Source: an uncultured delta proteobacterium
GTDB taxonomy: Bacteria > Desulfobacterota > Desulfomonilia > UBA1062
NCBI GenBank assembly: GCA_963798485.1
Contig: CAWCTR010000004.1
Location: forward strand, 128,001 to 192,000
Reading direction: 5' to 3'
Length of the DNA stretch: 64,000 nt
In this document: positions 9,625 through 64,000 of the stretch, in pieces
Position numbering within the stretch: position 1 is the first letter of the stretch
Layout: every line of letters begins with the position of its first letter
Position numbers and translations under genes: made by a program
The notes under the pieces: generated by a model
What the model saw: only the letters and a program-made list of their open reading frames with translations
What the model was told of the DNA's origin: nothing
Database searches by the model: none

Positions 9625-9779
9625 GGCTTCATTCCTTCAATCCGGATGATAGGGAAGGTATACCACAGGATCGTATTCTTTTACATCATGTTTACTTTAA
9701 GGAGGGTGTCGGGGCGCCAAAGTTTCCTCCCCATCAAGGGGAATGTCAGGATACCAAAATTCCCTCCCCTTTGAGGAAA

Positions 9780-14498: not shown

Positions 14499-14640
14499 CC
14501 CTTTTCATTTCAAAACTTCTGGACCCCCGTTTCGCTGGGGTGACACCATTTTTTGAGTTTTGCCATTGCCTCGAATGGCTGTAGTTCAGGTGGATCTTCA
14601 GCATAACTGTAGGAGCGGCTTCAGCCGCGAATTCATCTTG
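13839..14640. repeat. GTAG-type REP palindromes
   Basis: gtagggtgggtggagcgaagcgaaacccacc occurs twice and gtaggagcggcttcagccgcgaattcatcttga three times (near 13878, 14279, 14609). Confidence 0.8.
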
Positions 14641-14820: not shown

Positions 14821-15576
14821 ATGTATTCAACTGTAGTGAGCGATAAGGAATGTAATGTGACTTCTGAACGTATTAGAAACTGGCCCGCAAAAGAACGTCC
14901 GCGCGAACGACTTCTTGCTGAAGGTCCTGATAGGATGACAGATGCCGACCTGCTCGCAATCATCCTTCGGGTTGGATTAGGGACGTTCAAAGTGGGTGTT
15001 CCAGGGAAGAACGCCTACGATTCTGCCCTCTCAATTCTGAGGGAATTCCGAGGGCTCCGCGGGCTTGACCGTGCCCGCATTCATGACCTGCTCAAAGTTC
15101 CCGGCCTTGGGCCTGCGAAAGTCTCGCAAATCAAGGCTGCATTCGAGCTCGGGAAACGTGTGTGTGCCGGAAAACTCACCGCCCCTGCTTTCGAATCCTC
15201 AAAGACTGTTGCCGACCACTTCCGCCCGCGCTTTACTGGAAAACGGCAGGAGATAGTCATTGCTTTGTTTTTGAACGGACAGAACCAGCTCCTTGGTGAG
15301 AAAGACATCACCGAAGGGACTCCGACGCAAGCTACCGTGTATATTCGCCGCATTCTGGAAGAAGCACTCCATGAATCAGCAGCGGCAATCGTCCTTGTCC
15401 ACAATCACCCCTCGGGCAATCCAGAACCCTCAGCCAGTGACGATGAGACGACGCATAGCCTCTTGCGCGCTTGTAAACTGGTGGGTCTGGTCCTGCTTGA
15501 CCACGTGATTGTTGGCGAGTCCGACCATTATAGCTATGCCGAAACCGGTCGGCTCAATGAACTTGAACCAGAATAG
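14821..15576 (+). CDS. radC: RadC/JAB-domain protein
   Basis: ERPRERLL, HhH VPGLGPAK, HNHPSGNPEPSASD, LLDHVIVG. Confidence 0.95.
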   Translation: MYSTVVSDKECNVTSERIRNWPAKERPRERLLAEGPDRMTDADLLAIILRVGLGTFKVGVPGKNAYDSALSILREFRGLRGLDRARIHDLLKVPGLGPAKVSQIKAAFELGKRVCAGKLTAPAFESSKTVADHFRPRFTGKRQEIVIALFLNGQNQLLGEKDITEGTPTQATVYIRRILEEALHESAAAIVLVHNHPSGNPEPSASDDETTHSLLRACKLVGLVLLDHVIVGESDHYSYAETGRLNELEPE

Positions 15577-15587
15577 AAGGGTGCCAT

Positions 15588-17852
15588 ATGTCCAAGAAGA
15601 AAATAGAACCCCAACCTTATGCTAAGCCGGATCAGATCCAGATTCGCGGGAACCAGATTTACAGCCATGTCCGCAAGACATGGGTGCCGTTGACACCCGA
15701 GGAACGCGTCCGGCAGGATTATCTCTTTGTCCTGATTAACGAATACGGATATTCACTGGATCAGATTGATGAAGAGATATCGGTTACCAGCCGTGGCTCC
15801 GCACAGGCCCGCGCAGATTTCCTTATTTGGCGCACACCAGAAGCCAAGAAGCAACAGGAACACGCCCTGATTGTCATTGAATGCAAGGCCGACAACGTAA
15901 CCATCTCCTTGAAAGACTACGTGCAGGGAGCCAATTACGCACAATACGAACATGCACGGTTCTTTGTCACCCATAACCACCGCGAGACCAAGTATTGGAA
16001 AGTGGATGACAAACGGCGGATGCCTAACTACGATGAGATCGCGAACATTCCACATGCAGACGCAACAGACAAGGAAATCGACGAATTACTGGCACGTCTG
16101 AAAGTTTTCAAGGAGGACGAATTTGCTAAGCTGCTCCACGAATGCCACAACGTCATCCGCAATCGCGAAAAGCTCGACCCCGCAGCAGCCTTTGACGAAA
16201 TAGCCAAGATTCTCTTTGTGAAAGTCTATGTTGAACGGGAGCTACGGGCCAAACGCGCGCGGAGGAACCTCTTTAGCGTCGAGTATCTTGACGATCAACT
16301 TGGCAAGTACCCGCTCAACACGCTCTTTGGGCAAACCAAAGAGGCCTATGCGGATGACAAGATCTTTGAGGACGATGAGGAAATACGGCTCAAACCCGCC
16401 ACGGGTAGGGAAATCGTCAAGTTGTTGCAACGCTACAATCTTTCCGAGACCAGCGAGGATATCAAAGGTATTGCCTTTGAGCGATTTCTCGGTCGCACAT
16501 TCCGGGGCGAGATTGGGCAATTCTTTACACCGCGCACCATCGTCGAGTTCATGATTCACATGGTGGAGCCCCATGAGGAGGACGTGATTTGCGACCCCGC
16601 TAGCGGCTCCGGAGGGTTCTTGATTCGCTTCTTTGAGATCGTGCGGCAACAGATTTTGGCAGACGCCGACCGCCAGTACCAGGAATTCAAGACCAAGGTT
16701 CAGGCCGACAATAAGCTCTCACCGGACAAAAAGGCAACCATGCTCCGTGAGAAGTTCGACGCCATCCAGGCAACCCTTGACTCTAACAAACCCGGCTCTC
16801 GCCTGTGGAAGCTGGCCAACCGCTGCATCTTCGGCACCGATGCAAACGACCGCATGGCTCGCACCAGCAAGATGAACATGATTATGCACGGTGACGGCCA
16901 CGGCGGGGTGCATCACCATGACGGATTCCTGAATGTCAACGGTATATTCGAAAGCCGCTTCGACATCGTCCTCACCAATCCGCCCTTCGGAGCCAACGTC
17001 GAGCCTTCCGACGTGGTGCATGAATCTGATGCGACGGTGAGCCGCGAGGCTGAAAAACGCTATGCTGAAGAGTACGGCAAACTCTATGCTGAAGCCTTGG
17101 CTCGTGTACACGCCGCTGTGGGGAACCCCATCGCCAGTCTCTTTGAACTACCCAAAGGCAATGGCACCGAAAAGGAACGCAACAAACGGGTCAAGTCGGC
17201 CAAGATCAAAACTGAAATTCTATTCATTGAACGCTGTCTTTCCCTGTTGAAGCCGGGCGGGCGGCTTGGCATCGTTCTGCCCGAAGGGATCTTCAACAAT
17301 CCCTCACTTGTCTACGTGCGCGAATTCTGTGAAAACCGCGCCTTCATCCGCGCAGTTGTCAGCTTGCCCCAAGAGGCATTCTTTTCCTCTGGCGCAAGCG
17401 TAAAGGCATCATTGCTGTTCCTTCAAAAGTTCACTGAGGAAGAGCAGTCCGATTTCGATACCAAGCAGGCCGAAGCAAACGTCGAGGTGAAGGCGAAGCA
17501 TGCCAAAACCATCGCCACGGAGACCGCACGGCTTGAGGCAGCGATAGCGGTAGCCAAGGAAGCGCGGGATACCGAGAAACGAAAGACACTTCAAAAGGAA
17601 TTGGCCGACTTTGAGAAGCGAATGGCCGAGACCATCGCAAAAGAAACCCGCGCCTTGCTCAAAGAGCGTTTCCCGTATCCCATCTTTCTTTATGAAGCGG
17701 AGAAGGTGGGCATCACTGCCACAGGTGAACAGGACCAAAATGAGCTGGTTCCAAACGATAACCTGCCACAGGGAACTACAAAGACGTGCCTTGAGCTTTA
17801 TCAGGACTTCCGACATGACCCCCAAACCATTCTTTCTCACAGAGGCAACTGA
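15588..17852 (+). CDS. Restriction-modification fusion: N-terminal HsdR_N-type PD-(D/E)xK nuclease + N6-adenine MTase
   Basis: TPEERVRQ, RADFLIW...VIECKAD; GQFFTPR, DPASGSGGFL, LTNPPFG, GIVLPEG. Confidence 0.92.
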   Translation: MSKKKIEPQPYAKPDQIQIRGNQIYSHVRKTWVPLTPEERVRQDYLFVLINEYGYSLDQIDEEISVTSRGSAQARADFLIWRTPEAKKQQEHALIVIECKADNVTISLKDYVQGANYAQYEHARFFVTHNHRETKYWKVDDKRRMPNYDEIANIPHADATDKEIDELLARLKVFKEDEFAKLLHECHNVIRNREKLDPAAAFDEIAKILFVKVYVERELRAKRARRNLFSVEYLDDQLGKYPLNTLFGQTKEAYADDKIFEDDEEIRLKPATGREIVKLLQRYNLSETSEDIKGIAFERFLGRTFRGEIGQFFTPRTIVEFMIHMVEPHEEDVICDPASGSGGFLIRFFEIVRQQILADADRQYQEFKTKVQADNKLSPDKKATMLREKFDAIQATLDSNKPGSRLWKLANRCIFGTDANDRMARTSKMNMIMHGDGHGGVHHHDGFLNVNGIFESRFDIVLTNPPFGANVEPSDVVHESDATVSREAEKRYAEEYGKLYAEALARVHAAVGNPIASLFELPKGNGTEKERNKRVKSAKIKTEILFIERCLSLLKPGGRLGIVLPEGIFNNPSLVYVREFCENRAFIRAVVSLPQEAFFSSGASVKASLLFLQKFTEEEQSDFDTKQAEANVEVKAKHAKTIATETARLEAAIAVAKEARDTEKRKTLQKELADFEKRMAETIAKETRALLKERFPYPIFLYEAEKVGITATGEQDQNELVPNDNLPQGTTKTCLELYQDFRHDPQTILSHRGN

Positions 17853-19238
17853 GTGAAAGCTACAAACCCAATTACACTCCGTGCCTTTGCTGTCTGGTGG
17901 AAGGATTTTGAACGCTGGGACGTAAAGTTTTTTTCGGCACACGTACGCAGCACTTATCCTGTCGTGCGGCTTGCTCCTTTAATTCATGAACACAGCGAAC
18001 GAGTAAAGCCTTTTGATTGCCCAGAAACAACATTTCGCATTTTGGGGGTCACGAACACGGGTGGAATTTTTCACGCCTATGATTCGCTTGGGAAGAAGAT
18101 CAAACAACCATACCAGAAGGTTGATGCCGGCGACTTTGCTTACAATCCTTACCGTGTTAATGTTGGTTCAATCGGCGTTGTTCCGACAGAGCTGGGAGGT
18201 AACTATATCAGCCCCGCCTACGTTGTTTTTGCCACTGACAAGGCAAGGCTACTGCCTGAATATCTTATCTTGATCCTGAAGGCCGATTGGTTCAATCCAA
18301 TGGTCAGGGCTGCGACAGCAGGCTCAGTCCGACAGAACCTAACTTTCGATCTTTTAGGCTCATTAGAGATTCCGCTCCCATCGCTGGCTGAGCAAAAGGC
18401 CATCGTCGCGCGTTGGCGCAAGGCGCAAGACGAAATAGTCGCTGTCCGAGGACGTGTAGTGAGACTGGAAGTGATGTTGCCTCTAATTGTTTATCAGGAG
18501 CTTGGGACACCGCCACCACTTGCAGAAAAGGCGACAGAAAAATACCTCATTATGTGGTGGAAAGATATGGAACGATGGAGCTTCACCTACTTGAGCCGAG
18601 CCAGTCAAGGTTTGTTGGGCTTCGCAAAATCGAAGTTCCCGATTGAACCGTTGGGAAACCATCTGATTGAAACCATGAACGGATATTGCATCAAACCCGT
18701 GGCAGGAACGACCCCGCACAAAATGCTAAAGTTGAACGCGCTCAATCCCGCTGGCCTGGATTTGACTGCAAGCAAATTCATCAAAGTCTCTGATCGTATC
18801 GCAGAACGATTCTCACTTCGTAAGGACGATATTTTGATTTGTCGGAGCAACGCCTACGAGTATGTCGCGAAGTGCGCGTTGGTTCGAGAAGATCAACCAG
18901 CATACTTATTCCCGGATATTATCATTCGGGCACGTGTGAAAACCACCGTCCTTCCTGAGTTTGTAGCCGAAGTCATTCAAACACCGCTGGGACGTTCATA
19001 TTTCCAAATCAACTCCCGCCGTGCGGTTGGTGGAATGTGGAAAATAAGCGCTGACGACATTCTCAATTTTCCTCTGCCAGTACCGCCACTAGCCGTACAA
19101 AAGCTGATAGTGGAACGTATAACGGCAGGCCGCGAAGAAATTACCCGCGAACGTGAAGCTGCCGACCGCCTTGCAAAAGAAATCAATGCAGAAATCGAAT
19201 CATTAATTCTCGGTACTAAAAGCTTACAGGAGTCATAG
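17853..19238 (+). CDS. hsdS: HsdS-type specificity subunit (two TRDs)
   Basis: Two TRD + conserved-helix units (LEIPLPSLAEQKAIV; FPLPVPPLAVQKLIV); GTG directly follows the MTase stop. Confidence 0.9.
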   Translation: MKATNPITLRAFAVWWKDFERWDVKFFSAHVRSTYPVVRLAPLIHEHSERVKPFDCPETTFRILGVTNTGGIFHAYDSLGKKIKQPYQKVDAGDFAYNPYRVNVGSIGVVPTELGGNYISPAYVVFATDKARLLPEYLILILKADWFNPMVRAATAGSVRQNLTFDLLGSLEIPLPSLAEQKAIVARWRKAQDEIVAVRGRVVRLEVMLPLIVYQELGTPPPLAEKATEKYLIMWWKDMERWSFTYLSRASQGLLGFAKSKFPIEPLGNHLIETMNGYCIKPVAGTTPHKMLKLNALNPAGLDLTASKFIKVSDRIAERFSLRKDDILICRSNAYEYVAKCALVREDQPAYLFPDIIIRARVKTTVLPEFVAEVIQTPLGRSYFQINSRRAVGGMWKISADDILNFPLPVPPLAVQKLIVERITAGREEITREREAADRLAKEINAEIESLILGTKSLQES

Positions 19239-19239
19239 T

Positions 19240-20829
19240 ATGGCTCGAAGCATACGTTACCTTACATTTGAAGGTCAGTTTGAAAGCAGCGTACTTGGCA
19301 CGTTCCGCATCATCCGTGGCTTTGCCAATCTCAAAGACCTTGCAGAAGTCTCCGTGCCTTACGAGATGGAAGACAGTGATGGTTGTGATCAAGTCAAAGG
19401 TCAACAACGAAAGCTTGACCCTCAACATGCCGAGCGAATCAAACGATACCTGGAGAGCGGTGAACAGCGCTTCTTGCCTGAGGTAATCCTCTCCGTTCGT
19501 GCCGACTTGACAGAAACCTCGGATGAAAATTTCAAATTGATAGGAGTTGAGAGCAAAGGTACAGAAGATGGCATCACAATTAACCGACGATGGAAAAGTC
19601 ACAATATCCGCGTTCATCGTATGTCGGTTGATCGTAAGAAGCTCTCCGAGATTCGGAGCAAAAAACTCATTCGTCGTGTGGATGGAAACCACCGCCTTGC
19701 ACTTGCCGAAACGCTAAAAGACGATCCGAGCATCCCCACGAAATATCTGGCTCCGTTTTGCCTTGTTCTCTTAGGCCCAACTGGGGAAGCTGCGGATGAC
19801 TATTCCGAGTCGCTGATTTTCCATACCATAAATAGTACCGCACTTCCTCTGGAATCTGAGCATGCACTGAAACTTATTCTTGGACAACACGCAGATTACG
19901 ATATGACGCCGGGAAAAGAATTTGCCTTCAGCCCTGACCTACATTTTACACGTCTTCTTAGAGATGGCCTTTTAAGGCTGCCGGAGCCAGCGCAATCACG
20001 GCTCGGGAATCATCCTTTGACATGCTTGCGCAACGCAGTACGTGGTCTGTTGGAGATGGATAAAAATGTAGCCAAAGATCTCCCCTCACTTCGCGAGTAT
20101 TCGAAGACATTACTTGCAGCCTTGAATGACATTGTGACACGTTTGGAACCTATTCGACCTTCGCTTTGTCAGGCAGACTTTTTTATCGAATTGGCGGCCC
20201 GTGTCTGGAAAGGAACACCGGACAGTGATAAACATTCTAAACGCGTAAATACAACTGTTGCCTACCTGGAACAGTTGGCCGGTTGGCTGGGGCAGGATGG
20301 ATTGGTAGAATTGAATGAAAACCAGTCACTTAGCAAACAGCTGCTTGATATATTCAACGCAGTTAGGATGCGGATTCCTAGAAGGGTTTTCCTCGCTCGT
20401 TGGTATCCCACGGCAAGCGACGGTGAGGAATTCGAGAAGGCTAAACTACGTCTCACGCAGATTCGACAGGCTCTCAAAGAACTAGAGAAGGAGATGGGAG
20501 CTCAGCTCGAACTCGTAGACCTGGGGACGCAAACCGGCACTACTTTTCCAATTCACACCAAGATGTACAATGCTATTGCATCAGCTGACATCATCCTCGT
20601 GGACCTGACCGGGGTACGCCCAAACGTATGCGTGGAAGCTGGTTTCGCACTGCGAAATCACGAAAAGAATCGGCTCATTTTCATCTTTCAGCCAACAAAA
20701 AAATATAAAACTGTTCCCTTCGATTTGAATACATACCGATATGAGTCTTTCAAGGATACGGGAGAAATCCCTGAAAAGATAAAGCCCCATATCACCGCAA
20801 TTCTTAGCAACGCAGCAATAGGTTCTTGA
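19240..20829 (+). CDS. DGQHR(DndB/ParB-like)-domain protein fused to a C-terminal NDT/TIR-like domain
   Basis: QQRKLD...IKRYL, RVDGNHRL, IFHTINS; C-terminal RVFLARW...IASADIILVDLTGVRPNVCVEAGFA...VPFDL. Confidence 0.8.
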   Translation: MARSIRYLTFEGQFESSVLGTFRIIRGFANLKDLAEVSVPYEMEDSDGCDQVKGQQRKLDPQHAERIKRYLESGEQRFLPEVILSVRADLTETSDENFKLIGVESKGTEDGITINRRWKSHNIRVHRMSVDRKKLSEIRSKKLIRRVDGNHRLALAETLKDDPSIPTKYLAPFCLVLLGPTGEAADDYSESLIFHTINSTALPLESEHALKLILGQHADYDMTPGKEFAFSPDLHFTRLLRDGLLRLPEPAQSRLGNHPLTCLRNAVRGLLEMDKNVAKDLPSLREYSKTLLAALNDIVTRLEPIRPSLCQADFFIELAARVWKGTPDSDKHSKRVNTTVAYLEQLAGWLGQDGLVELNENQSLSKQLLDIFNAVRMRIPRRVFLARWYPTASDGEEFEKAKLRLTQIRQALKELEKEMGAQLELVDLGTQTGTTFPIHTKMYNAIASADIILVDLTGVRPNVCVEAGFALRNHEKNRLIFIFQPTKKYKTVPFDLNTYRYESFKDTGEIPEKIKPHITAILSNAAIGS

Positions 20830-20897
20830 TTATTGAGAAAACTATTTAGGATAATCGGATAATCAGGGTCAGAGTCGATTTAACAGCTTATTTATGT

Positions 20898-21443
20898 TTA
20901 TGCAGACCCCTCTTGATATTCGACTAACATTCGGGCTACATCTGCAGCTGCATCTCGTGCCTGTTCAATTGGGATATGTGGCTTGATCTCATTTACGCGC
21001 ACAGCACACTGTTCGGTATTCCGAATCGCTTCTTCCTTGCATACATACAAAGCAGTGGATAGGCGCTCCAATGCCACGACGCCCTTCGCACCGAGGTTTT
21101 CCACAATAAATGCCATGTCGGGATCATACTGCTGAACAGCCCCAAGGTATTGCTGATAAAAACGAATCCCTGCCTCGGAAACGGATAAGTTCGGGCCATA
21201 GGGGTAAGGGTTTATCTCAATGGTGAGATAGCCGTCCGCCCTCATTTCTGTGAGTTCATCCCGTAATTCGAATGAGAAGGGGCCGTGTTTGTATAAGACA
21301 AATTCATAATCCACGGGTGTATTGGTTATTTCCTTGAGAGAAAACATAGCCTTCTGGATATGAGTTTCTCCGCACCAACTGCCTTTATTACGAAGAGACT
21401 TGACCAGATCAAGCAAAATGGCTCTGCGGACAGACTGATCCAT
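20898..21443 (-). CDS. YwgA-like / Panacea(SocA)-like winged-helix protein
   Basis: GETHIQKAMF...YEFVLYKHGPFSFEL motif; ATG 4 nt after the HD gene stop. Confidence 0.7.
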   Translation of the reverse strand: MDQSVRRAILLDLVKSLRNKGSWCGETHIQKAMFSLKEITNTPVDYEFVLYKHGPFSFELRDELTEMRADGYLTIEINPYPYGPNLSVSEAGIRFYQQYLGAVQQYDPDMAFIVENLGAKGVVALERLSTALYVCKEEAIRNTEQCAVRVNEIKPHIPIEQARDAAADVARMLVEYQEGSA

Positions 21444-21447
21444 CTTT

Positions 21448-22785
21448 CTACCCTCCCCCTGATTCAATAATACCACTTCTTTCGCTTTCAAGCCACTGCT
21501 TTGCTTCATACTCCAACTCTCTCTTGATGAAGATGTATTCGGTTTTCACCACAGGGATCTGATTGAGAGTTTGTGATAGAGAGCTGGATGATTCAATTCT
21601 CCCATCTTTCATGAATACCGGGAAATCAATAGATTCACCCTTCTGGGATGGGCTGTCGAACCTGATATTCTCAGGACCATATTTTCTATACGCTGCATCT
21701 TTTATCAATGTTGCCGCCTGTTGGTTCTTTTGAAAGTCGGTTGGATTCCGTTCATACAACCTCTTGTAGTGCTGTCTCTTGATAATCCGTGCAGCATGAA
21801 CTGACCCTGGCATGCCTTCGTCAAAAGCAGCTTTCCTGAGCTCAACTAAAATTTCATGATCAGTGGAGGATAAGTGGCGATCAGGTTCCGTAGGGAATTT
21901 GCCACCAGTAAGCATATCCACAAGATAATCTTTCAGGTGGATATCATAAATCCTTCGGACAGGGTGAAAATATACCTGTGAATACATGAAGTATCTTGCC
22001 AGCAGAAGGGCTTCTGCGGATTGGAGTCCGCCTGCTTCAACCCCAAGAGTAGGTTCTTTTGACTTTTCCTGTTCTCCACCTGAAGGTGGCGGTGTAAGTA
22101 TGCGCATCGTATCTATCAACCGATAATGATCAAATCTGCCGTAAGCAACACCTATGTGATATGAGTCCCTCAACAAATAATCCATCCGATCAACACCGAA
22201 TGCATCACCTACAATGATCTCAGAAAGAATAGTCTCCCAGTCATCAAATGTAAGGTCAGGGGCCTTCTGTTTTCCAATGGCCAGTTTGACGATATCTTCG
22301 GCCCTCAATGGTGGGGTCATCCGTTGCCAGATCTCCTTCAGCTCATCATTCATAATGAGCTCTCGGGTTAATTTCTCATGATCCCAATTCTCAGGAAGCA
22401 ACTCCTTCTCTGCTGCATGGGAAAACGGCAGGTGTCCTATGTCGTGACATAATCCAGCCATTCGAAGTGCTTTCCTCCAGTATGCGCGTACCTCGTCCTT
22501 ATTTAATTGAGGAAAAAGATCCCTTACTTCGGGCAAGAGATGATTCGGATGGGTAACAATATCAAATACCCTTCCGGCAAGTTCCATGACCCCCAGCGAG
22601 TGTTCGAATCTCTTATGAGAAGCGCCTGGATACACAAGATATGTGAGCGCTAACTGATGAATGCATCGTAATCGTTGAAATGGTCTTGAATCAAGGACAT
22701 CCCTTTCTTGATCATCTAACTTGATGAAGGTGTGGATGGGATCCCTGATTTCATGGAAGATCTTTCTCAAATCCTCCTCCATCAT
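21448..22785 (-). CDS. HD-domain dNTP triphosphohydrolase-like protein (SAMHD1/YwfO family)
   Basis: RDPIH, FQRLRCIHQL, HKRFEHSLG, HDIGHLPFSH, DRMDYLLRD, ARYFMYSQVYFH. Confidence 0.9.
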   Translation of the reverse strand: MMEEDLRKIFHEIRDPIHTFIKLDDQERDVLDSRPFQRLRCIHQLALTYLVYPGASHKRFEHSLGVMELAGRVFDIVTHPNHLLPEVRDLFPQLNKDEVRAYWRKALRMAGLCHDIGHLPFSHAAEKELLPENWDHEKLTRELIMNDELKEIWQRMTPPLRAEDIVKLAIGKQKAPDLTFDDWETILSEIIVGDAFGVDRMDYLLRDSYHIGVAYGRFDHYRLIDTMRILTPPPSGGEQEKSKEPTLGVEAGGLQSAEALLLARYFMYSQVYFHPVRRIYDIHLKDYLVDMLTGGKFPTEPDRHLSSTDHEILVELRKAAFDEGMPGSVHAARIIKRQHYKRLYERNPTDFQKNQQAATLIKDAAYRKYGPENIRFDSPSQKGESIDFPVFMKDGRIESSSSLSQTLNQIPVVKTEYIFIKRELEYEAKQWLESERSGIIESGGG

Positions 22786-23024
22786 TTCATCATAATGGTC
22801 ATGGAGTCATTGCAAAGATGATATGACGGAATATAAATCACAGTATTTAAAACACATCAAGTGGTATTCTCCATACAGATTCTGCCCAGAACCATATCAC
22901 CATCTTGATGAAAAATCTTGATGAAAAATTCTTGACTTTTCTAGTGCAGATTACTAACAACTCGATACTGTAATATTTAGCGTCAGTCATAGTGTGATGT
23001 TTTCGATACAATTTGGAGGGGAGT

Positions 23025-23201
23025 ATGAGCAGGAAAAGTAGTGTACTAAGTGTTAATAAAGACAATTTAAAAGCCCTTAAAACGGCGTCTGCCCAGAGAC
23101 GTATCAAAGAAAACAGAGAGCGATCTCAAATCATCCAGGACCAGATTCGTGAAGACCTCCGTGTATCACCCGACAAACTAGAATACTACTTCAATATCTG
23201 A
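23025..23201 (+). CDS. Small hypothetical protein (58 aa)
   Basis: Strong RBS GGAGGGGAG before ATG 23025; no motif. Confidence 0.45.
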   Translation: MSRKSSVLSVNKDNLKALKTASAQRRIKENRERSQIIQDQIREDLRVSPDKLEYYFNI

Positions 23202-23392
23202 TTCGAGCATCACATCGATGCCATCCCTTGAAGTTGTTCCATATAGTATTGATGAACTCCGGAGAATCCTCCAATGAAATTTCTCTAGACGCCAAATTGC
23301 TCGGCAGAAAAGGGGGGGCAATTTTCTGAATACCAGGACCTGACAATATTACTGCTTGATCTAAAAATAGAACAAACCCTTTTCCCTGTCAT

Positions 23393-23626
23393 TTATTCGG
23401 TTTCAATAATAACGCCGCATTGCTCACATTGATAGCGGGTCTTTTCTTGATCGATCGCCTGGACTTCCTCAAAGTCATATTGCTTTTTGCCGTGTACCTC
23501 AAAACATTCCGGGCAATACCCATCCGATAGCTCATCGGCGGTGATGGTCAGATGGCAGTTCCGGCAGCGCAGCCTGCTTTTCTGCTGCGGCAGGAGGACC
23601 AGGTGGAGATGTCTGCATGATGTCAT
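23393..23626 (-). CDS. Small Zn-ribbon-type protein
   Basis: CRH, CRNC, CPEC, CEQC. Confidence 0.65.
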   Translation of the reverse strand: MTSCRHLHLVLLPQQKSRLRCRNCHLTITADELSDGYCPECFEVHGKKQYDFEEVQAIDQEKTRYQCEQCGVIIETE

Positions 23627-23671
23627 ACGACAAGCCTTTAAAGAATTTATCGCAGTGAATCAAGAAAAGAA

Positions 23672-23850
23672 GAAAAGGGGGCGTTTCTCATTTTCATCCT
23701 TACAGGGGTATAATGTGAACCTGCCCGGCCCTTTCCCGTAAGGGGTGAGGGGCATAAGTGTGCCCCACCGAGCCCCTCAGCCATGAGATGCAGAGTATTT
23801 AAACCCATCCCCACCCTGTCCCTCCCCTTGAAGGGGAAGGGACTTTAAGT
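23672..23850 (-). repeat. Inverted copy of the composite palindromic repeat
   Basis: Reverse complement reads aaagtcccttccccttcaaggggagg...ggtggggatgggtttaaat...ggttcacattatacccctgtaaggatgaaaatgagaaacgccccctttt, matching the 13950-14090 unit. Confidence 0.85.
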
Positions 23851-24063
23851 AATCAGTGTCAGAGTCGATTTAACATTTTATTTAGGCAGACCCCTCTGAT
23901 ATTCGGCTAATTCTCATTCAAGTCGGACTAGGTTAAGTATATGATATGCCCTTGTTAGATTTTATAAGCAGGTGTTTTCAAGCCTTGGATCCTCTTTTTT
24001 AGCATCGAATGGGTATTATAAATAAGGAAGAGTAGGTTCTATCATCCATAAAAGGAGTTCATC

Positions 24064-24570
24064 ATGAAAAAATGTGATCCCCCGGCCATTTCCGAAGAGG
24101 TGACAACCCGGATTAAAAAAGGCGCTTTCCTGACCGTCAAGGCCGGAGACTCTATGAACACCATGACCATCGGCTGGGGCCTGATTGGATTCATCTGGCA
24201 GCGGAGCGTCTTCATGGTGGCCGTGCGCGACTCGCGTCATACCTTTTCCATCATGGAAAAGGCTTCTGATTTCACTGTCACCGTGCCGACGGGGGACATG
24301 AAAGACGCCCTCATGTTCTGCGGCTCCAAATCCGGACGGGATCTGGACAAGTTCAAGGCCTGTAATCTGATTCCTGTAGCGGCGCGGCACACGGTATCCC
24401 CGATTCTCCAGGTGCCAGGTATCCACCTCGAATGCCGGATCTGTTTCAAAGCGCCCATGGACCCCGTTTATCTCGATGGGGCACTTGAAGATCTTTATCC
24501 GGCAAAGGACTACCATACCCTCTATTTTGGTGAGATCGTGGCCTGTTACGAAACTGATGCACCACTGTAA
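24064..24570 (+). CDS. Flavin reductase family protein
   Basis: NTMTIGWG, VAVRDSRHT, CGSKSGRDLDK, DYHTLYFGEI. Confidence 0.9.
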   Translation: MKKCDPPAISEEVTTRIKKGAFLTVKAGDSMNTMTIGWGLIGFIWQRSVFMVAVRDSRHTFSIMEKASDFTVTVPTGDMKDALMFCGSKSGRDLDKFKACNLIPVAARHTVSPILQVPGIHLECRICFKAPMDPVYLDGALEDLYPAKDYHTLYFGEIVACYETDAPL

Positions 24571-24762
24571 GCGGTGGAATGGGAACTCACCATGAATTTA
24601 GGTGACCTTCGAAAAACGAGTGATTAGGCCTTGGTTTTTGCTTATTGGGCTATGGTATATAAAGGGGATGTGGGGATGTGGAGATGTGGAGGGTCTTGCA
24701 TTATTAGACAATATAGCAAAGCTTAAGAAGCACGTTGCGAAATTGCTCTTTACATCACCGAA

Positions 24763-25629
24763 TCATGACTCATACGGGCGTGTCCCCTTGCACTTGGGGT
24801 ACGTGGAACAGCCGTAAAATTTGTTGCCGGGTGTCGGGCCTTTCTTTGCTATGCGCAGTACCATCTTACTGCCACACAAGGGGCACAGAGGGGGCACGGG
24901 GTTTTCGCTGCGGACAGGTGTCTTCATGACTGCCGGTTTATTTTTAGGGAATAGTAATACCTTGTTTTTGATTTCACCGATCATTGCATGTAGTTCTTTG
25001 CCGTTCACGAGTTCGATGGGGTTGCCCCTGGCAAAATCGAGAGCCTCCTGGGTAAAGGTGCCGGAGGTGATGACGATCCCTCCCGATGCCTTCTTGTCGT
25101 AGACCACTCCAAGCAGTTCCCTGACTATGATTACGCCCACGCTCTCCATCTTCCAGTGCTTGCACTGGACAAAGATGGTTTCGCCGTTTTTGTTCAGCAC
25201 AAGGTCCACCCCGCCATCGGCCCCACCGCCACCGGTCTCGGTGATGGTGTAGCCCTTTCTTCTGTATGCCTCGCCCACGAGCCGCTCGAAATCCTGCCAG
25301 CTCAGTGATCGGAGTGTTTCCCTATTCTTCTGGTTATTGAAGAGAGCGATCCTCTTCTTGCTCCTGAATAAATAATTCAAGAAGGAAAGGGCGGCCATGG
25401 AGAGGAAAAAGAGCAAGGCCGAGTTGGCCAGGTATGGGCTTACCTGTGCCAGGCTGTTGAGGAAAAGATTGGGTGGAATGCCATTGGAACCTGGTGCTGC
25501 ATGTTGATTACCCCATATTGCCGGAATCGCAAACTTCAATAATCCATAACTGAAAATAGCAAGGATGACGCTGACCCACCACGAAGCATCGATCAGGTCA
25601 TCAGCCAATGAGGTGTTTCTTCGAGCCAT
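24763..25629 (-). CDS. Mrr-type restriction endonuclease with N-terminal TM helices and C-terminal topoisomerase Zn-ribbon
   Basis: WQDFERLVGEAY, GADGGVD, VQCKHW, ITSGTFT; C-terminal CPLCG...FYGCSTYPKC. Confidence 0.88.
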   Translation of the reverse strand: MARRNTSLADDLIDASWWVSVILAIFSYGLLKFAIPAIWGNQHAAPGSNGIPPNLFLNSLAQVSPYLANSALLFFLSMAALSFLNYLFRSKKRIALFNNQKNRETLRSLSWQDFERLVGEAYRRKGYTITETGGGGADGGVDLVLNKNGETIFVQCKHWKMESVGVIIVRELLGVVYDKKASGGIVITSGTFTQEALDFARGNPIELVNGKELHAMIGEIKNKVLLFPKNKPAVMKTPVRSENPVPPLCPLCGSKMVLRIAKKGPTPGNKFYGCSTYPKCKGTRPYES

Positions 25630-25928
25630 GTTCGAATCCTTTCCTTTTCCTCTTAACTACAATAACTATATCGAATTATTTTATGATTTTAGTTAAGCCA
25701 AGTGATACTCCAGCAAAAGAGGTCGCAAAAATGAATGCATATCTCATCTGTTATTTCTTTATGCCATTTCATGCCCCTTAACACACGTTTCATTCAATCC
25801 CTTTGAACATTTCATTGAATGAATCATGGTTTTTCAAGAGTTGTTAACTGCCATCTATGAGCTGCAATTCAGTTAATAATAAATATTAACAATACACTAT
25901 GCGATTATTTTCGATCATTCCGTAAAGT

Positions 25929-25943
25929 TGGCACAATGTATGC
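25929..25943 (+). promoter_or_regulatory. Sigma54 promoter (operon A)
   Basis: TGGCACAATGTATGC has GG-N10-GC spacing and is followed by CTTATA, as in operon B. Confidence 0.75.
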
Positions 25944-25985
25944 CTTATAGAGGGCATCAAGTAAACATGAAGGAGGGCAATTAAA

Positions 25986-26261
25986 ATGAAAAGGACAATC
26001 CAGACAATAATCGTAGCAATGTTCGTGGTAATGATCACCGGTACGTTTGCCTTTGCAGCCGCAGCAACCTCAGGCGGAAACAGCTTCCCCTATTTCCACC
26101 TTGGCTGCCTGATCATGGGCGGGCTTACCATCATCTCTGTGAAGTATCGTTATGAGAGGATGTATCTCAGCGAGGCAGTGGGATCTTTCGCACTCTATGC
26201 AGTGCTGGTTGCCCTGTTCACCGCACCGGTCATCGAGGCAGTAAAAGGCCTGGTGAGCTGA
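25986..26261 (+). CDS. Small membrane protein (signal peptide + 2-helix hairpin), paralog of 27184-27360
   Basis: RBS GAAGGAGGGCAA; AFA-A signal cleavage pattern; hydrophobic hairpin. Confidence 0.8.
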   Translation: MKRTIQTIIVAMFVVMITGTFAFAAAATSGGNSFPYFHLGCLIMGGLTIISVKYRYERMYLSEAVGSFALYAVLVALFTAPVIEAVKGLVS

Positions 26262-26333
26262 GAAGATTATAAACAAACACCGACCCGCCCTCGAGACCTG
26301 GGGGCGGGGATAGCCTAAAAAGGAGGAGAGGCC

Positions 26334-26597
26334 ATGAAAAGGGTAAGAAGAAACAAACTCCAGACCAAGACCTTGAATCAGATCATCCTGCTGAGTGCAT
26401 GGAGCTTCACCCTGGTCATCTCCTCATTCCTGTTCCTGTTCGCCGGCCGGTGGATCGATGTGAAGTTCAATACGGAACCAACCTTCATGCTTGGACTGTT
26501 CGTGTTGGGCATCGGGTTATGCATTGGCCGGATGTACACGGACTACACAAAGGCCAAAGATGCGTTGAACAACCGAAGGATCAGGTACCAGTCTTAG
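26334..26597 (+). CDS. AtpZ/AtpI (ATPase gene-1)-like membrane protein
   Basis: Basic N-terminus, TM, GRWID..FNTEP.F...LG pattern typical of the family. Confidence 0.8.
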   Translation: MKRVRRNKLQTKTLNQIILLSAWSFTLVISSFLFLFAGRWIDVKFNTEPTFMLGLFVLGIGLCIGRMYTDYTKAKDALNNRRIRYQS

Positions 26598-26646
26598 TCG
26601 ATACTCAAGAAGGCCGGGTAACTTTCCGGCTCCCTGCATCACGAAA

Positions 26647-26680
26647 GCGGGCCGCCCTCTTCGGCGGCCCGTTGCTTTTC
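26647..26680 (+). terminator. Rho-independent terminator between the convergent operons
   Basis: gcgggccgcc-ctcttc-ggcggcccgt followed by tgctttt. Confidence 0.7.
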
Positions 26681-26793
26681 AGCGAAAGAATCATTGAATA
26701 AAAAAACACGACCCTTTTGGGAGTCTCGTGGTGTGTGATATGGATCGTTTCTGGGGAGGAAGAACGCTGTAGAGAATTAGGTGTCCCGGTTGA

Positions 26794-26898
26794 TTATCGG
26801 CTATGCACTGTCCCGGGAGCGTGTCCTGCGCGTTTCATGAACCTTACCGTCAGGGCCAGGAATGCTGTGAAGCCGATGGTGACAAAGATGATTGTCAT
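26794..26898 (-). CDS. Putative 34-aa single-TM microprotein
   Basis: ATG 2 nt after the AtpZ-like stop, AAGAGGG upstream; MTIIFVTIGFTAFLALTVRFMKRAG; below the ORF-track cutoff. Confidence 0.45.
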   Translation of the reverse strand: MTIIFVTIGFTAFLALTVRFMKRAGHAPGTVHSR

Positions 26899-26900
26899 GG

Positions 26901-27143
26901 CTAAGCCCTCTTTACCCTTCTCTCGATCACGACCTCTTCGATGAACCCCTTGAAGCCCAGTGCAATACCGGCCACCAGGCCGACCAGCGTGAAGTTTGGG
27001 GCCATGTTCAATGTCTTATCGAGGTACATACCGCCATACATCCCGAGGAAGGTCATCGCAACAAGCACTACGCTGTAGCCGCTGATCCGGCAGAGCCTGT
27101 TGGCCAGTGCCTTTTCGATCTTTTCTTTCTTCATCCGTTTCAT
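26901..27143 (-). CDS. AtpZ/AtpI-like membrane protein (second paralog)
   Basis: GMYLDKTLNMAPNFTLVGLVAG pattern; RBS AAGGAG. Confidence 0.8.
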   Translation of the reverse strand: MKRMKKEKIEKALANRLCRISGYSVVLVAMTFLGMYGGMYLDKTLNMAPNFTLVGLVAGIALGFKGFIEEVVIERRVKRA

Positions 27144-27183
27144 GGCCTTCCTCCTTATCCGCCTTTGCTGTTTAAGTCCTACC

Positions 27184-27360
27184 TTAGAACAGGCTCATGA
27201 GGATCTCACGTGCCGGTCCGGTGTTGATGGTGACTAGTGTCACGACCAAGACGAATACTGCGCTTGCTTCAGCCGGGGTGAGTCCCAATACCTTGTAGGT
27301 GAACCTGATGCCGGTGCCGGTCATGAACAGTGCGCCGATTACGATCCATAATGTCATCAT
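27184..27360 (-). CDS. Small membrane hairpin protein (58 aa)
   Basis: RBS GAAGGAGGGCAA before ATG 27360; aligns by eye with the C-terminal part of 25986-26261. Confidence 0.8.
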   Translation of the reverse strand: MMTLWIVIGALFMTGTGIRFTYKVLGLTPAEASAVFVLVVTLVTINTGPAREILMSLF

Positions 27361-27409
27361 TGTCTTGCCCTCCTTCGGGGTTTGTTTTTTTCTTTCTGTC
27401 TTATATAAG

Positions 27410-27452
27410 GCAAGGGGCGTGCCAGGGACTGTAGATTTATAACTCACTGATA
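27410..27452 (-). promoter_or_regulatory. Sigma54 promoter with IHF site (operon B)
   Basis: TGGCACGCCCCTTGC (27410-27424) is a consensus -24/-12; TATCAGTGAGTTA (27440-27452) fits WATCARNNNNTTR. Confidence 0.85.
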
Positions 27453-27635
27453 ACAGGGAATAATAAGAAGCGCAGTCTTTATGATATTGCCATTTTGGCA
27501 GAAAGGCCTTCAGCCAGGACATGGGCAGGTACAAAATGACAAAATAACCTAAGCAGACATTACCGGAAGTGTCAGAATGACAAAGTCGGTGTTCACACTC
27601 ATGATCCATGCGCGAAGGGATTCTCTAATAAAAAT

Positions 27636-27879: not shown

Positions 27880-28938
27880 TCATGATGCCTTGACCTCTTC
27901 TTTTTTTAGCTGTTCTTCGGGGGTTTCTGTGCTCAACAATTCCATATACTGTTTTTGGTCGGACACGATATTGTAGACATATCTCTCTGTCGTTGATACC
28001 GCTGCATGACCAAGTACATTCTGGATCACCTGCAGCGGAACATTTTGGACTGCCATATACGAAGCAACATGACGCCTCAAGGCATGAAATCCCATCTCTT
28101 TAATTCCCGCCCTCTTGCACAGTCCAGCTAGAAAGCGACGTCTCATGGTGAATGGCTTTCCATAATGCGGAGATCTATCATCTATCACCACGAACACATA
28201 GGGTGTGTCTTTGACAGGTCTTGCTTTCCACCACCATTCGAGGGATGTCTTCAACTCGCTTGTCATATCCAACCATCGGGCTTTCAATGACTGGTCTCGT
28301 GTCTTTCGTGTCCATAGCCGGAGCTTCCCATTAGGGAAATCGATGTCTTCCCATGTCAATCTGAACAGCTCACTTTTTCGTGCCCCTGTGTGAAGATATG
28401 TCAGGAGCATTGTCCATTCATCGGGCTTGCATACGGCCTTGAGTTTCAAGACATCACTTCTCACGGGTGTGAATTGAGGCTTTCGGTCATGTGCAAACTT
28501 GGGGACCTTTGCAGCAGGACAGTCTTGAACATCTAAATAAGATCTTGCATAGGCCCACATTGCAAGGATGTTTTTTCTGTCAACGTTGGCGGCATTTGCA
28601 CTGCGCGCTTGCTTCTGCTTTGTCAGGTAATCCAGGCACATTTTCGGAGTTATGTGATTGACAGGCTGGTCCTTTCCCCATTCTGCAAGAAGTCGGTTGC
28701 ATAGAGCTAATTTTTCACCAACAGTGCGTGAGGAAAACCGTGCAGAATACTCCATGTACTCAATCGTCAGAGAACCTAAGACCAAGCCGTTTTGCTCGCG
28801 CTGCTTGATCTGTTTCCGCTCTTCGAGCTCCCACTTGACGGCGGACCGGCTCGTGGCGAACCCTCTTTTGGTGGCAACCCTCTTGCCGAGGATCTTTACC
28901 ACAGCTCTCCATGTCCCATCTTTTTCCTGATAAGGCAT
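27880..28938 (-). CDS. int: Tyrosine recombinase / phage-type integrase
   Basis: TGARKSEL (R), RKT (K), FHALRR (HxxR), LGH, TTERY (Y). Confidence 0.95.
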   Translation of the reverse strand: MPYQEKDGTWRAVVKILGKRVATKRGFATSRSAVKWELEERKQIKQREQNGLVLGSLTIEYMEYSARFSSRTVGEKLALCNRLLAEWGKDQPVNHITPKMCLDYLTKQKQARSANAANVDRKNILAMWAYARSYLDVQDCPAAKVPKFAHDRKPQFTPVRSDVLKLKAVCKPDEWTMLLTYLHTGARKSELFRLTWEDIDFPNGKLRLWTRKTRDQSLKARWLDMTSELKTSLEWWWKARPVKDTPYVFVVIDDRSPHYGKPFTMRRRFLAGLCKRAGIKEMGFHALRRHVASYMAVQNVPLQVIQNVLGHAAVSTTERYVYNIVSDQKQYMELLSTETPEEQLKKEEVKAS

Positions 28939-30504: not shown

Positions 30505-33418
30505 ATGGCGTGTTATCATATCCAGGTTAAAATAATCAGCAGGGGCGGAGGCAAATGCGCCGTTTCCGCCGCTGCATACCGCTCGCGGGATAAGCTCTAT
30601 GATGAACGCCTGGACATGACATTCGACTATACGAAGAAGAAGGACCTCGCCTATGAAGAGATCCTCCTTCCGGAAAATGCACCCGAAAGACTGAAAGACC
30701 GGCAGACTCTCTGGAATGAAGTCGAAAGAGTAGAGAAGCGAAAAGACGCACGCCTCTCCCGGGAAGTCGAGTTAGCTCTTCCCAAGGAACTGAACTTCGA
30801 ACAACAGGTAGCTCTTGTAAAAGAATATGCTCAGTCACAATTCGTGGATAAAGGAATGATAGCCGACATCTGCATCCACAAGAGCGATAAAAATCCTCAT
30901 GTTCATATCATGCTTACAACTAGAGAAGTTACCAGTGATGGCTTTGGTAAAAAAGTAACCGCATGGAATGATAAAGCAGAACTCCTGAAGTGGCGGGAAG
31001 AGTGGGCGAATATCCAGAACAGGAAATTGTTGGAAGCAGGTCACGATATCCAGGTTGACCATAGGAGCTTTGCAGATAGAGGCATTGACCTTGAGCCACA
31101 CATCGAAGATCGGGATAGCAGCAAAATACCTGCCCAAAGGCTACCTCCACTTGCAAGAAACCCGAGGACTTGATCGCCTCGAAGAGTACCAGAGAATATG
31201 CAGAGAGAATGGGGAACGGATTATCAATGATCCGGCAAAAGCCTTGAAGCTCGTTGGACATTACGATGCCGTGTTCAAGCGGGAAGACATCATGGATTTC
31301 GCCTTCCGACACAGCGCTGATGCAGATCAGTTCAACCGTGTTTTCTCTGCCCTTGAGAACTGCCAAGAGCTTGTCAGAGTCGGGAAAAATGAGAAGGGAG
31401 AAGACCTGTTACTCAACTCGTACCATGGTGCTGAGCGAGAGGACCATGCTCAATAATGCGCAGAAAATGAATTCTTCAAATGGCCACCTCTTGGAGCAAA
31501 ATATCATCAATCAGACTGCGAAGAATTACACAATGAGTAAGGAGCAGGAAACAGCATTCAGAAACATAGTGGAGAGTGGAGATATCTCCGTGATGATCGG
31601 TCGTGCTGGAACAGGGAAAAGCTATACGCTTGGTGCAGTAAAAGAAGCATATGAAGCAGGAGGATATCGGGTAAGAGGCTTGCACTTTCGGGTATTGCAG
31701 CAGAAGGCCTTCAGAATGAAAGCGGGATCGAAAGCACAACCATCTTCAGGCAGTTGGAGGACTGGGAAAATGAGAGAAATGTACTCAGCAAAGACCAGAT
31801 CCTGGTGATCGATGAAGCGGGTATGGTCGGTACCAGACAGATGCATAAGATCTTGGAACACGCTCATGAAGCAGGAGCAAAAGTGATCCTGGTGGGAGAC
31901 AACGAACAGCTCCAGTCAATCGAAGCAGGAGGATCATTCCGAGGCATCATCCAGAGGACCGGATACGTAGAACTGGCAGAAGTAAGAAGACAACATGTCG
32001 AGTGGCAGAAACAAGCAACCGTAGAATTCTCCGGCAACAAAGAGCAGGCGGAGAAGGCCCTGGAAATGTACCACGACCATGGACACATCCATGAACTCCA
32101 GACCAGGCAAGACGCCAAGGATCAGATGCTGAAAGAGTGGGCAGAGCAGCAACATCTTTCAAAACAGAAGCACGAGACCAGCCTCATGATGGCCTACACG
32201 AACAAGGACGTTCATGATTTGAACCAGGGGGCGAGACAGTACAGAAAACTCTATGGAGAGCTCCGAGAACCCGAACACACCTTCATGACCGAGAAAGGAG
32301 AACGAAACTTCTGCACCGGAGACCGGATCATCTTTCTCAGAAACGAGCATTCTTTAGGAGTTCGTAATGGTTCCCTTGGTACAGTTAAGAATATCAATCG
32401 GGGAGCCATGACAGTAAAACTCGATAAAGGCGATAGAGTCGCTATCGATACGAGCATGTATAAAGATTTCGACCACGGATATGCAGCAACCGTGCATAAG
32501 ACTCAAGGCTCCACCCTGGATCATACTTTTGTCCTAGGCTCACGGCATTTTGATAAACATACCACCTACGTTGCCATGAGCAGGCATAGAGAAAATGTGG
32601 CCATGTACTACGGAAAGGAAGATTTCAAAAACCTTGAGGACCTGCAGAGAGTCATGGGGAGAGAACGCCCAAAGATTCTGGTTATAGACTATGGATTGCC
32701 TAGAGGCATAGAGCCCGATAACAGAGTTATCGAAGCAGAGAGAGTTCTGACTCACGAAGAAAGACGCATCCAGGAACAAGAATGGCAACGGCCAAGGGAT
32801 GAAGAGAAGTATGTCGAGCAAATGAAAGAGAAGGGAATCCAGGTTGAATTCCCCAAGGATAAAACTGTTGAAGGGTATTATATTGGGATTCAGGAGGTCT
32901 CTGGCAGAAAGTACGCCATGATCGATACCCATGCCGTTACAACACAAGGAACCCGCTACATGGTGCCTTATGACTGTGACAAGCGGAAGGATGAAGTAAT
33001 GAAATTCCGTCGCGTGGAATATGACGGTCAGAGGATTGAAGAGATGTGGAGGAAGGATTTAGAAAAGGAGAGACAGCAAAAGCTCGCTCAACAAAATCGA
33101 GAACCGAAACACGAAAGAGAGCTCAATGCGTCAGAGATCCTCTACTGCCAGCAGATGAAGGACCGGGGCCTCCAAACAGAATTTATAAATGAAAGATCAG
33201 TGGAAGGGTACTTTACCAAAATAGAAACGATTGGCGAGAATAAGTTTGCTGTGATCGAGAATAAAGGAACTCGGTATATGGTGCCCTGCAATAACGAATA
33301 TGATCAAATGCAGATGCACCGCTATGTAGCTTATAACGGACAAAACATGTCTCCTGCCAAACCAAAGACCTCTGACCTTGCTCAAGATATCGGCAAAGGC
33401 CTTGGGCGTGAGAGGTAA
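30505..33418 (+). pseudogene. traA: TraA-like MobA/MobL relaxase-RecD helicase fusion split by three single-base frameshifts
   Basis: MACYH, AAAYRS, ALPKEL, NPHVHIMLTTR; Walker A GRAGTGKS, IDEAGM, GDNEQL, HKTQG, YVAMSRH; frame breaks near 31106, 31406 and 31679. Confidence 0.88.
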
Positions 33419-34708: not shown

Positions 34709-35490
34709 GTGTGACACGAATGCCGGGAGGCAATGCTGTGTAGGAGATGAGGGAAGGCCCCTCGGAGCCGCCATGCAGGTGGAGGCTTCAAACCGCCCTA
34801 AGCTGCGATGGTAAAGAGCCATGGTGGTGAGCGTTAGGGAAAAGGCGCAAAGAATGTGTCAGGTGAGTATCGGAGAGACGAGCGAAAGCGAACCAGTCGA
34901 TGAGGCATCGAAACAAATCTATAGACGATGTCAAAACCAGGATCTTTTGTTATCCTGGGAAGAGCTCAGAGGGAGCCTGTTTACTGTCTGAGCGGCATCC
35001 GGTGTAGAGATGGCGTGAATCCGATATGGGCTTCTGCACAGAACGTGTGAACCTGTCGTCCGGATGACAAGGGAGAAATCCAAGGGGGAAGGCCCCCCGA
35101 GGGCGAGAGTACCGATGCCGGGCACAGGGGCGGGACAGCTCGTAGTAGTGATGAAGCTCCTGTAATGGGAGTGGAGCTGAACAGGTCAAGGATTCCATCA
35201 AGAAAAGGTTAGCAGAGTGCAAACTCGAAATGCACCCAGACAAAACCAAGGTCGTATACTGTAAAGACGGCTCGCGGAGGGGGACTCACTCTACTGTCTG
35301 TTTTGATTTCCTTGGTTTCACATTCCAGCCCAGGAAAGCTATTAACAAGAAAGGCCAGAACTTTACAGGATTTCTACCGGCCATCAGTAACAAAGCCCTC
35401 AAGCGAATCGGTGATGTAGTTCGCAGTTGGAAGTTGCGGAGCTGGATCGGGTACGACATTGAGGAATTGGCCACAGCTTTAAATCCGGGA
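34709..35490 (+). mobile_element. Group II intron remnant (5' ribozyme domains + RT C-terminal fragment)
   Basis: Starts GTGTG; typical blocks gagcgaaagcgaacc, gagagtaccgatg, cgtagtagtgatgaagc...gtaatg...ggagc; ORF fragment LEMHPDKTKVVYCKD...FDFLGFTF; no YADD domain and no domain V found. Confidence 0.85.
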
Positions 35491-62574: not shown

Positions 62575-62651
62575 AAAGGAGGATTCGGGAAGGTAAAGAA
62601 AAAAGGAAACAAGCTGACAACGGCTTGGCAGCCAAACGCTATTATTCATAG

Positions 62652-64000
<1,349 letters not shown>

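Follow-up and report, generated by a model that had tools for sequence, protein, structure and literature searches.

Rings that mix unlike c subunits are known from the ATP synthase of Acetobacterium woodii, whose variants c1, c2 and c3 sit in the atp operon and keep the loop. Small inhibitors of ATP synthase, namely IF1, zeta and cyanobacterial AtpTheta, are soluble and act on F1. The former provide a precedent for combining different c subunits and the latter for small regulators that can be induced. The accessible text of PMC5376962 describes ring stoichiometry, and thereby the ion-to-ATP ratio, as held fixed by the c sequence, and that of PMC4154653 describes ectopic duplicates of atp genes. 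Here we analyze two convergent operons, A on the forward strand and B on the reverse strand, in a stretch of 64,000 nucleotides (nt) from contig CAWCTR010000004.1 of an uncultured delta proteobacterium (positions 1-64,000, hereafter the window). Each operon pairs a small membrane hairpin protein (A1, B1) with a protein of the AtpZ family (A2, B2) behind a sigma54 promoter. Together with a subunit c gene found in related genomes, they form a real, conserved and apparently undescribed regulon, whose parts are related to ATP synthase and which centres on a hairpin family that has no name.

A relaxed form of the sigma54 consensus gave three matches in the window, two of which are the -24/-12 promoters of operon A (25929-25943, +) and operon B (27410-27424, -), both ending in TGCCTTATA. 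The operons also have in common a 12-nt leader, GAAGGAGGGCAA (25969-25980 and 27365-27376), and the start context GGCCATGAAA. Operon A encodes A1 (91 amino acids (aa), 25986-26261, +), a signal-peptide-like leader followed by a two-helix hairpin, and A2 (87 aa, 26334-26597, +). Operon B encodes B1 (58 aa, 27184-27360, -), a leaderless hairpin in which Glu31 and Pro49 are invariant in 40/40 aligned relatives, B2 (80 aa, 26901-27143, -), and B3 (34 aa, 26794-26898, -), a single-helix peptide. B3 follows B2 in five of six B operons and resembles helix 1 of B1 in register, with three of the four scored copies in the top 1% of 1117 membrane decoy windows and the copy in L029 at 10%. An earlier note, made from the letters of this stretch, had described two convergent sigma54 operons with a common promoter end, leader and second-gene start context, and all of these are present. 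Its picture of a duplicated, enhancer-controlled membrane module also stands, except that B3 makes operon B a three-gene unit. The note had further reported that atp genes are absent, and the two AtpZ-family genes were indeed the only ones found in the window; atpB, F, H, A, D and C gave no match there or in 77 related loci. Structured RNA over the operons was rejected as an explanation, since Rfam gave no match there.

The first genes of the two operons had been described as alike by eye. A1 and B1 are not significantly similar by BLASTP (E 1.7), and their likeness emerges from profiles, which draw on the top 120 of 378 relatives of A and the top 120 of 159 relatives of B. Median scores against the opposite hidden Markov model (HMM) were 13.9 and 12.3 bits (121 sequences each), compared with maxima of 5.5/5.4 bits for reversed and 9.9/14.3 bits for shuffled controls; shuffles within 6-aa windows reached 12 bits in 1.3% and 0.3% of cases. 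The two profiles aligned in hhalign with E 1.2e-4 (probability 55%), and a joint A/B profile retrieved 48 representatives of both types among 1.84 billion proteins. Because cross-matches, hhalign and the joint profile agree, A1 and B1 are by these measures one small hairpin family, detectable by profiles only. Searches of Pfam, NCBIfam and the ESM Atlas yielded no named family for either. In AlphaFold2 (AF2) models both proteins are predicted to be two-helix membrane hairpins whose loop is short and basic and whose tail is kinked, with a predicted local distance difference test score (pLDDT) of 88 for B1 and 70 for A1. In A1, Glu63, Phe78 and Pro81 are conserved (67/68 each), and the cleavable-looking leader, read by eye as ending in A-F-A, resembles a signal peptide; B1 has no leader. 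Two leaderless A-type proteins (P0267, P0287) bridge A and B. A single record, P0260, joins the B1 helices to the C-terminal part of AtpZ; it may be a real fusion or an assembly chimera and was not used. Longer fused forms were not found, which is weak evidence since the search spanned 260-2000 aa only.

To place the operons among relatives, we scanned genomes with the A alignment, confirming at least 580 of 598 stretches; the best 80 gave 77 loci in 51 genomes, which are the closest relatives only. By title these genomes are mostly Syntrophales, Desulfomonilia, Smithella and unclassified Deltaproteobacteria, and most are metagenome-assembled. A sigma54 site precedes 85/87 hairpin genes, at a conserved distance, compared with 159/20000 random windows. 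An AtpZ gene follows 52 of the 76 A copies with room for one and 4/5 B copies, and an A-AtpZ pair occurs at least once in 38/47 genomes, so that the pairing and the promoters proposed in the earlier note are conserved elsewhere. The convergent arrangement of the window recurs in L006, L018 and L029, L004 has a divergent one, and L023 has B without AtpZ. The A gene is present in at least two copies in 16/51 genomes. Two genomes carry five and six dispersed, near-identical copies, each set forming one clade (100/96 and 100/100) in a tree of 91 columns that leaves many forks unresolved; such single clades are expected for a bulk subunit and point to dosage selection. In another genome (L008, L011, L012) the 70-nt leaders of three A-AtpZ copies are identical and two dCache-atpE operons are nearly so, which suggests that duplication was recent or that genes were converted. 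Carriage as mobile cargo was rejected: A1 has no match in phages or plasmids and B2 none in plasmids, the flanking genes are not common to most relatives, and tRNA genes lie near only 11/60 scanned loci.

The second genes are members of the AtpZ/AtpQ family by score, as the note had it, since A2 and B2 exceed the PF09527 cut-off of 26.6 bits with 37.3 and 43.7 bits; they are 34% identical to each other over 62 aa. Neither matches PF03899 (UncI/AtpI) at E ≤ 1. Known AtpZ/AtpQ genes, in the accessible text of the papers cited here, lie in atp or N-ATPase operons, as in the atpZI-B-E operon of Pelobacter (PMC3543383), whereas A2 and B2 stand behind a hairpin gene in stand-alone sigma54 operons. 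In the window and the 77 loci, the A2/B2 type was not found within an atp operon, and the c gene present in eight of the loci lies in a separate operon. The note had also offered a role in c-ring assembly, which finds no support in this form: the accessible parts of PMC2881411 and PMC4154653 assign the chaperone role to UncI/AtpI (PF03899), not to PF09527, and the former treats AtpQ as distinct from UncI, the two families having no significant similarity. The role of A2 and B2 may be analogous to that of UncI/AtpI, from a different family. In N-ATPase operons the function of atpQ is given as unknown in the part of PMC5376962 available to us.

Control upstream of the promoters differs between the two operons. 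Operon A has two copies of an enhancer-like site with consensus TTnAACGTTTCATTCAAT, at 25781-25798 (+, 148 nt before the sigma54 site, 16.2 bits) and 25803-25820 (+, 126 nt before it, 26.6 bits), and their spacing is fixed across relatives. The corresponding matrix matches 79/79 A promoters, 55 of them twice, scores that are circular in that it was trained on A promoters; it matches 0/6 B promoters. Operon B has instead the TGTCA-N3-TGACA palindrome pointed out earlier (27570-27582, -), which is real and is one of three conserved sites, with a degenerate one at 27529-27541 (-) and a third at 27488-27500 (-). All B promoters (6/6) have two or three palindromic sites of the form TG[ACT]CA-N3, located some 220, 180 and 139 nt upstream of the start; the pattern was written by eye from these promoters, and no A promoter matches it twice. 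A single activator common to A and B was rejected on the 0/6 result, and the earlier notion of one duplicated circuit goes with it; the conserved enhancers differ, and A and B therefore probably answer to different activators.

The integration host factor (IHF) site reported for operon B is an IHF-like sequence at 27440-27452 (-), which differs from the consensus at one position and precedes the sigma54 site by 28 nt; 5/6 B promoters have such a site at the same distance. Among A promoters an IHF-like site stands 40-42 nt before the promoter in 27/79, and a match anywhere occurs in 36/79, compared with 246/1700 shuffles; in the A promoter of the window there is no match with one mismatch allowed. 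The -12 element of A often reads TTC, TCC or CGC rather than TGC in Syntrophales-type loci (L031-L076), and the -24 element is intact. Enhancer-binding proteins are numerous in this phylum according to PMC12316311, whose accessible text makes no mention of ATP synthase.

The genes that recur beside A suggest both a candidate activator and a connection to ATP synthase. They comprise a dCache/PAS histidine kinase, a sigma54 response regulator, a membrane protein with a dCache domain only, and a genuine subunit c gene, which reaches 66 bits for PF00137 and scores above the TIGR01260 cut-off. This orphan c gene is present in 8/77 loci (seven genomes), and the two main clades in the tree of A are both represented among them. 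In L011, L019, L042, L049 and L075 a dCache-atpE operon is followed by kinase-regulator-A-AtpZ in divergent orientation, and L065 shows the same order, cut by the contig end; atpE is directly divergent from A-AtpZ in L012 and convergent in L024. A sigma54 site precedes the orphan c gene in 8/8 loci, and in 6/8 an A enhancer of at least 12 bits lies at roughly the same distance as before A, with L049 (9.4 bits) and L075 (11.0 bits) falling short. The matrix was trained without the orphan c promoters and finds 164 sites of at least 12 bits in 2.43 million positions, mostly before A. In 11/77 loci a single regulator orthologue (75-87% identity), the activator of a conserved kinase-activator pair, is encoded no more than 5 kb from A. 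A is linked to conserved enhancers and to a candidate activator whose binding to them is predicted, and B has conserved enhancers and no candidate activator.

A BLASTP search with the open reading frames (ORFs) of 12 c-containing reference loci found no atp genes in the 77 loci other than c and AtpZ. The window itself contains neither an orphan c gene nor the kinase-regulator pair. The dCache-only protein, found behind orphan c in L011 (3348-4646, -) and six other loci, is a 433-aa membrane protein with an acidic tail; it has no signalling domain and gave no BLASTP match to the sensor of the neighbouring kinase. On a Paraburkholderia replicon (L079, 2608-3159), a c gene stands behind an ORF resembling a short-chain dehydrogenase, not behind atpB, and may be another orphan c.

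The hairpins themselves resemble subunit c. Before the orphan c locus was known, the joint A/B profile searched against PDB returned 11 c subunits among 12 matches (best E 0.019), including a weak one to c1 of A. woodii, and the B profile later returned c in 5/5 matches (best E 0.015). Among 18,136 ORFs of the loci that lie outside the family, the joint and B profiles place the eight orphan c proteins at ranks 1-8, and conversely a c profile places B and A proteins at ranks 1-6. When 662 ORFs of 12 independent loci that contain c were ranked, six c subunits of the Na+/N type took ranks 1-6, above a, b, I and AtpZ. In three hhalign runs the Glu residues align with each other and the Pro aligns with that of N-P (P 0.008-0.013). 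When helix bounds were taken from the AF2 models and compared with the 1117 decoys, the B helix-2 profile placed 10/13 c proteins above all decoys and the A helix-2 profile placed c within the top 0-3% of them. An earlier two-segment score (orphan c 54-60, decoy maximum 31.3) was discarded: its bounds had been chosen after seeing c, and the retest kept helix 2 only.

The likeness is to Na+/N-type c (E-S/T-x-x-I-Y, F-x-N-P) and consists of a two-helix hairpin with a conserved Glu in helix 2, in the register of c, an aromatic residue at +5, Phe at +15 (A) and Pro at +18 from that Glu, and a short tail. Phe78 of A stands 15 residues past Glu, the spacing also given for the periplasmic kink Phe76 of an N-type c-ring described in the accessible part of PMC5376962, and the co-regulated orphan c has, like A, a long leader ending in A-F-A. 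A and B proteins, however, are about 30 residues shorter between the helices, a deletion size that is an estimate since helix 1 was dropped in the retest, with a link of 7-8 residues compared with 38 in orphan c. The cytoplasmic F1-docking loop R-[QN]-P is absent from the A1 and B1 alignments, the GxGxGxG array of helix 1 is reduced to G-x5-G-x-G (B) or G-x4-GG (A), and the Ser/Thr that follows Glu in c is Ala. Their genes lie outside any atp operon, are sigma54-controlled and are multi-copy. Because the docking loop and the glycine array are absent, A and B are, judged by sequence, not members of the c family. They probably descend from subunit c, and the link to ATP synthase, put forward speculatively in the earlier note, gains support from the co-regulated orphan c and the c-like helix 2.

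Several results weigh against this descent and against a joint action with c and AtpZ. The PDB E-values are not significant, and the full-length A-only profile has no c among its four PDB matches and places orphan c only at ranks 22-145. The c proteins of Vibrio, Priestia, Paenibacillus, Limosilactobacillus and Paraburkholderia score at decoy level, the hhalign probabilities between A/B and c are 3-5%, and helix 1 is not significantly c-like with independently fixed bounds. The B score of orphan c is 31-34 forward and still 22-25 when reversed, so part of the signal comes from composition. PF00137 matches no A or B protein, A1 and B1 stay below the PF00137 and TIGR01260 cut-offs, and 2/44 A/B proteins reach an NCBIfam c family (E 0.031). 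Both models place the Glu at the beginning of helix 2, and it may serve only to cap the helix. A c gene is not found nearby in 69/77 loci or in the window, 24/76 A copies lack AtpZ, and for PF09527 a c-ring chaperone role is not shown in the accessible literature. A complex prediction of two c, AtpZ and mature A (L011) scored 0.00; its controls were not folded and the partner fold was uncertain, and it is evidence neither way.

Part of this evidence would also fit hairpins that derive from c and have left ATP synthase, forming a homo-oligomeric ring or lattice of their own (a gated leak or a scaffold) that AtpZ assembles or gates, with c merely co-induced. Such a departure would account for the loss of the F1-binding loop, for A copies that outnumber nearby c genes and reach six per genome, and for AtpZ-less A genes kept under the same promoter and enhancer; in the models, moreover, the hairpin seems so short that it would hardly keep Glu mid-membrane in the register of c. 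The orphan c and A genes nevertheless form one locus with one enhancer in both clades, and we regard an independent ring as rather unlikely. The sub-threshold scores, the failure of helix 1 and the high reversed-sequence scores could instead mean that the likeness to c is convergent, A and B being unrelated structural or exported membrane peptides, for example pilin-like ones, in a stress regulon with atpZ and atpE. The cleavable-looking leader and high copy number of A agree with this, and fold searches were uninformative, a c-ring chain appearing at rank 43 (Z 5.8, root-mean-square deviation 3.2, 56 residues aligned), tied with unrelated helices. We consider convergence unlikely, since c is the best match outside the family in three separate searches and the gene context points to it independently; family scans gave no pilin match for A1 or B1, and the 30 recurring neighbour families scanned include no secretion or pilus gene. 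More improbable still is a unit for uptake or homeostasis of divalent cations (Mg2+) with AtpZ as the active part and A and B as accessory subunits, for while AtpZ helps Bacillus pseudofirmus OF4 to acquire Mg2+ (accessible text of PMC4453477) and its loop Asp is invariant in 48/48 aligned copies, AtpZ is dispensable, being absent also behind 1/5 B copies, and the co-regulated c gene would be left unexplained.

We return to hairpins derived from c that still act on ATP synthase. What can be read directly from the DNA comprises the genes, their promoters and pairing, the enhancers, including that of the orphan c gene, the multi-copy state and the loss of the loop motif. From these we infer the assignment of activator to enhancer, the topology, the binding to c and AtpZ, and the effect on ATP synthase. 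In the proposed mechanism, the dCache/PAS kinase and its NtrC-type sigma54 activator would act through the A enhancer, to which the activator would bind, turning on the scattered A-AtpZ operons and the spare full-length c gene together, and a second activator would drive operon B. The products A and B would be shortened c proteins that retain the Glu-bearing outer helix, the periplasmic kink and the tail, probably with the ends-out, loop-in topology, and that are missing the F1-docking loop and the remainder of the ion site. Partnered in the membrane by AtpZ, they could pack with c in the manner of c itself, inserting into, capping or replacing rings, and the resulting rotor material could not be driven by F1, so that ATP synthase would be throttled or re-geared. 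As the best of these readings we put forward, only tentatively, that an inducible, multi-copy, c-derived hairpin without the F1-binding loop acts with AtpZ on c-rings in this way. A bolder version, in which the ATP synthase of syntrophic-type Desulfobacterota is re-geared or clutched on demand by a two-component sigma54 regulon that floods the membrane with loop-less, c-derived hairpins, spare c and AtpZ and so changes c-ring size or the number of active ion sites, seems to us improbable as it stands.

Other features of the window were noted around the operons. A GC-rich hairpin between them (26643-26679, no strand assigned), seen by eye and absent from the output of the window scan, is a probable terminator; similar hairpins occur in L006, L018 and L029. 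Beyond operon B, the segment 27680-27726 (-) looks by eye like the 3' half of a tRNA-Glu (ARAGORN found no whole tRNA in the window) and adjoins a tyrosine integrase gene (27880-28938, -), after which comes a MobA/TraA-like relaxase that is broken up into several ORFs (30505-33418); this region is probably the end of an integrated element. Positions 62644-64000 match L018 13126-14482 at 85% DNA identity, and the matching segment of L018 is some 0.5 kb away from the B gene there; roughly 35 kb of the window (27.7-62.6 kb) may therefore be an insertion relative to the L018 genome. A fragment of a group II intron (D1-D4, 114.6 bits) lies at 34749-34864 (+). On the other side of the operons, 14821-25629 resembles a defence island, with RadC, restriction-modification genes, an HD-domain protein and an Mrr nuclease. 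A direct duplication of about 400 nt (95% identity) lies at 13699-14514, and intergenic repeats of 60-100 nt occur at 9747, 12395, 13931, 14332, 20860 and 23768-23910.

A literature search, with most subscription journals outside it and supplements unread, found no description of the hairpin family or its regulon, and the accessible part of bioRxiv 10.64898/2026.10.01.756066 contains no such paralogue. Through its two conserved enhancer motifs and the candidate kinase-activator pair, the regulon is open to direct testing, and the hairpin would offer a simple, testable client for PF09527. If the proposal is true, a regulated and amplified c-derived hairpin, expressed with a spare c, would challenge the view that ring stoichiometry is fixed, in a setting of mostly uncultured anaerobes with very small energy margins. 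If the module has left ATP synthase, it would still be a rotor subunit that was cut down and redeployed.

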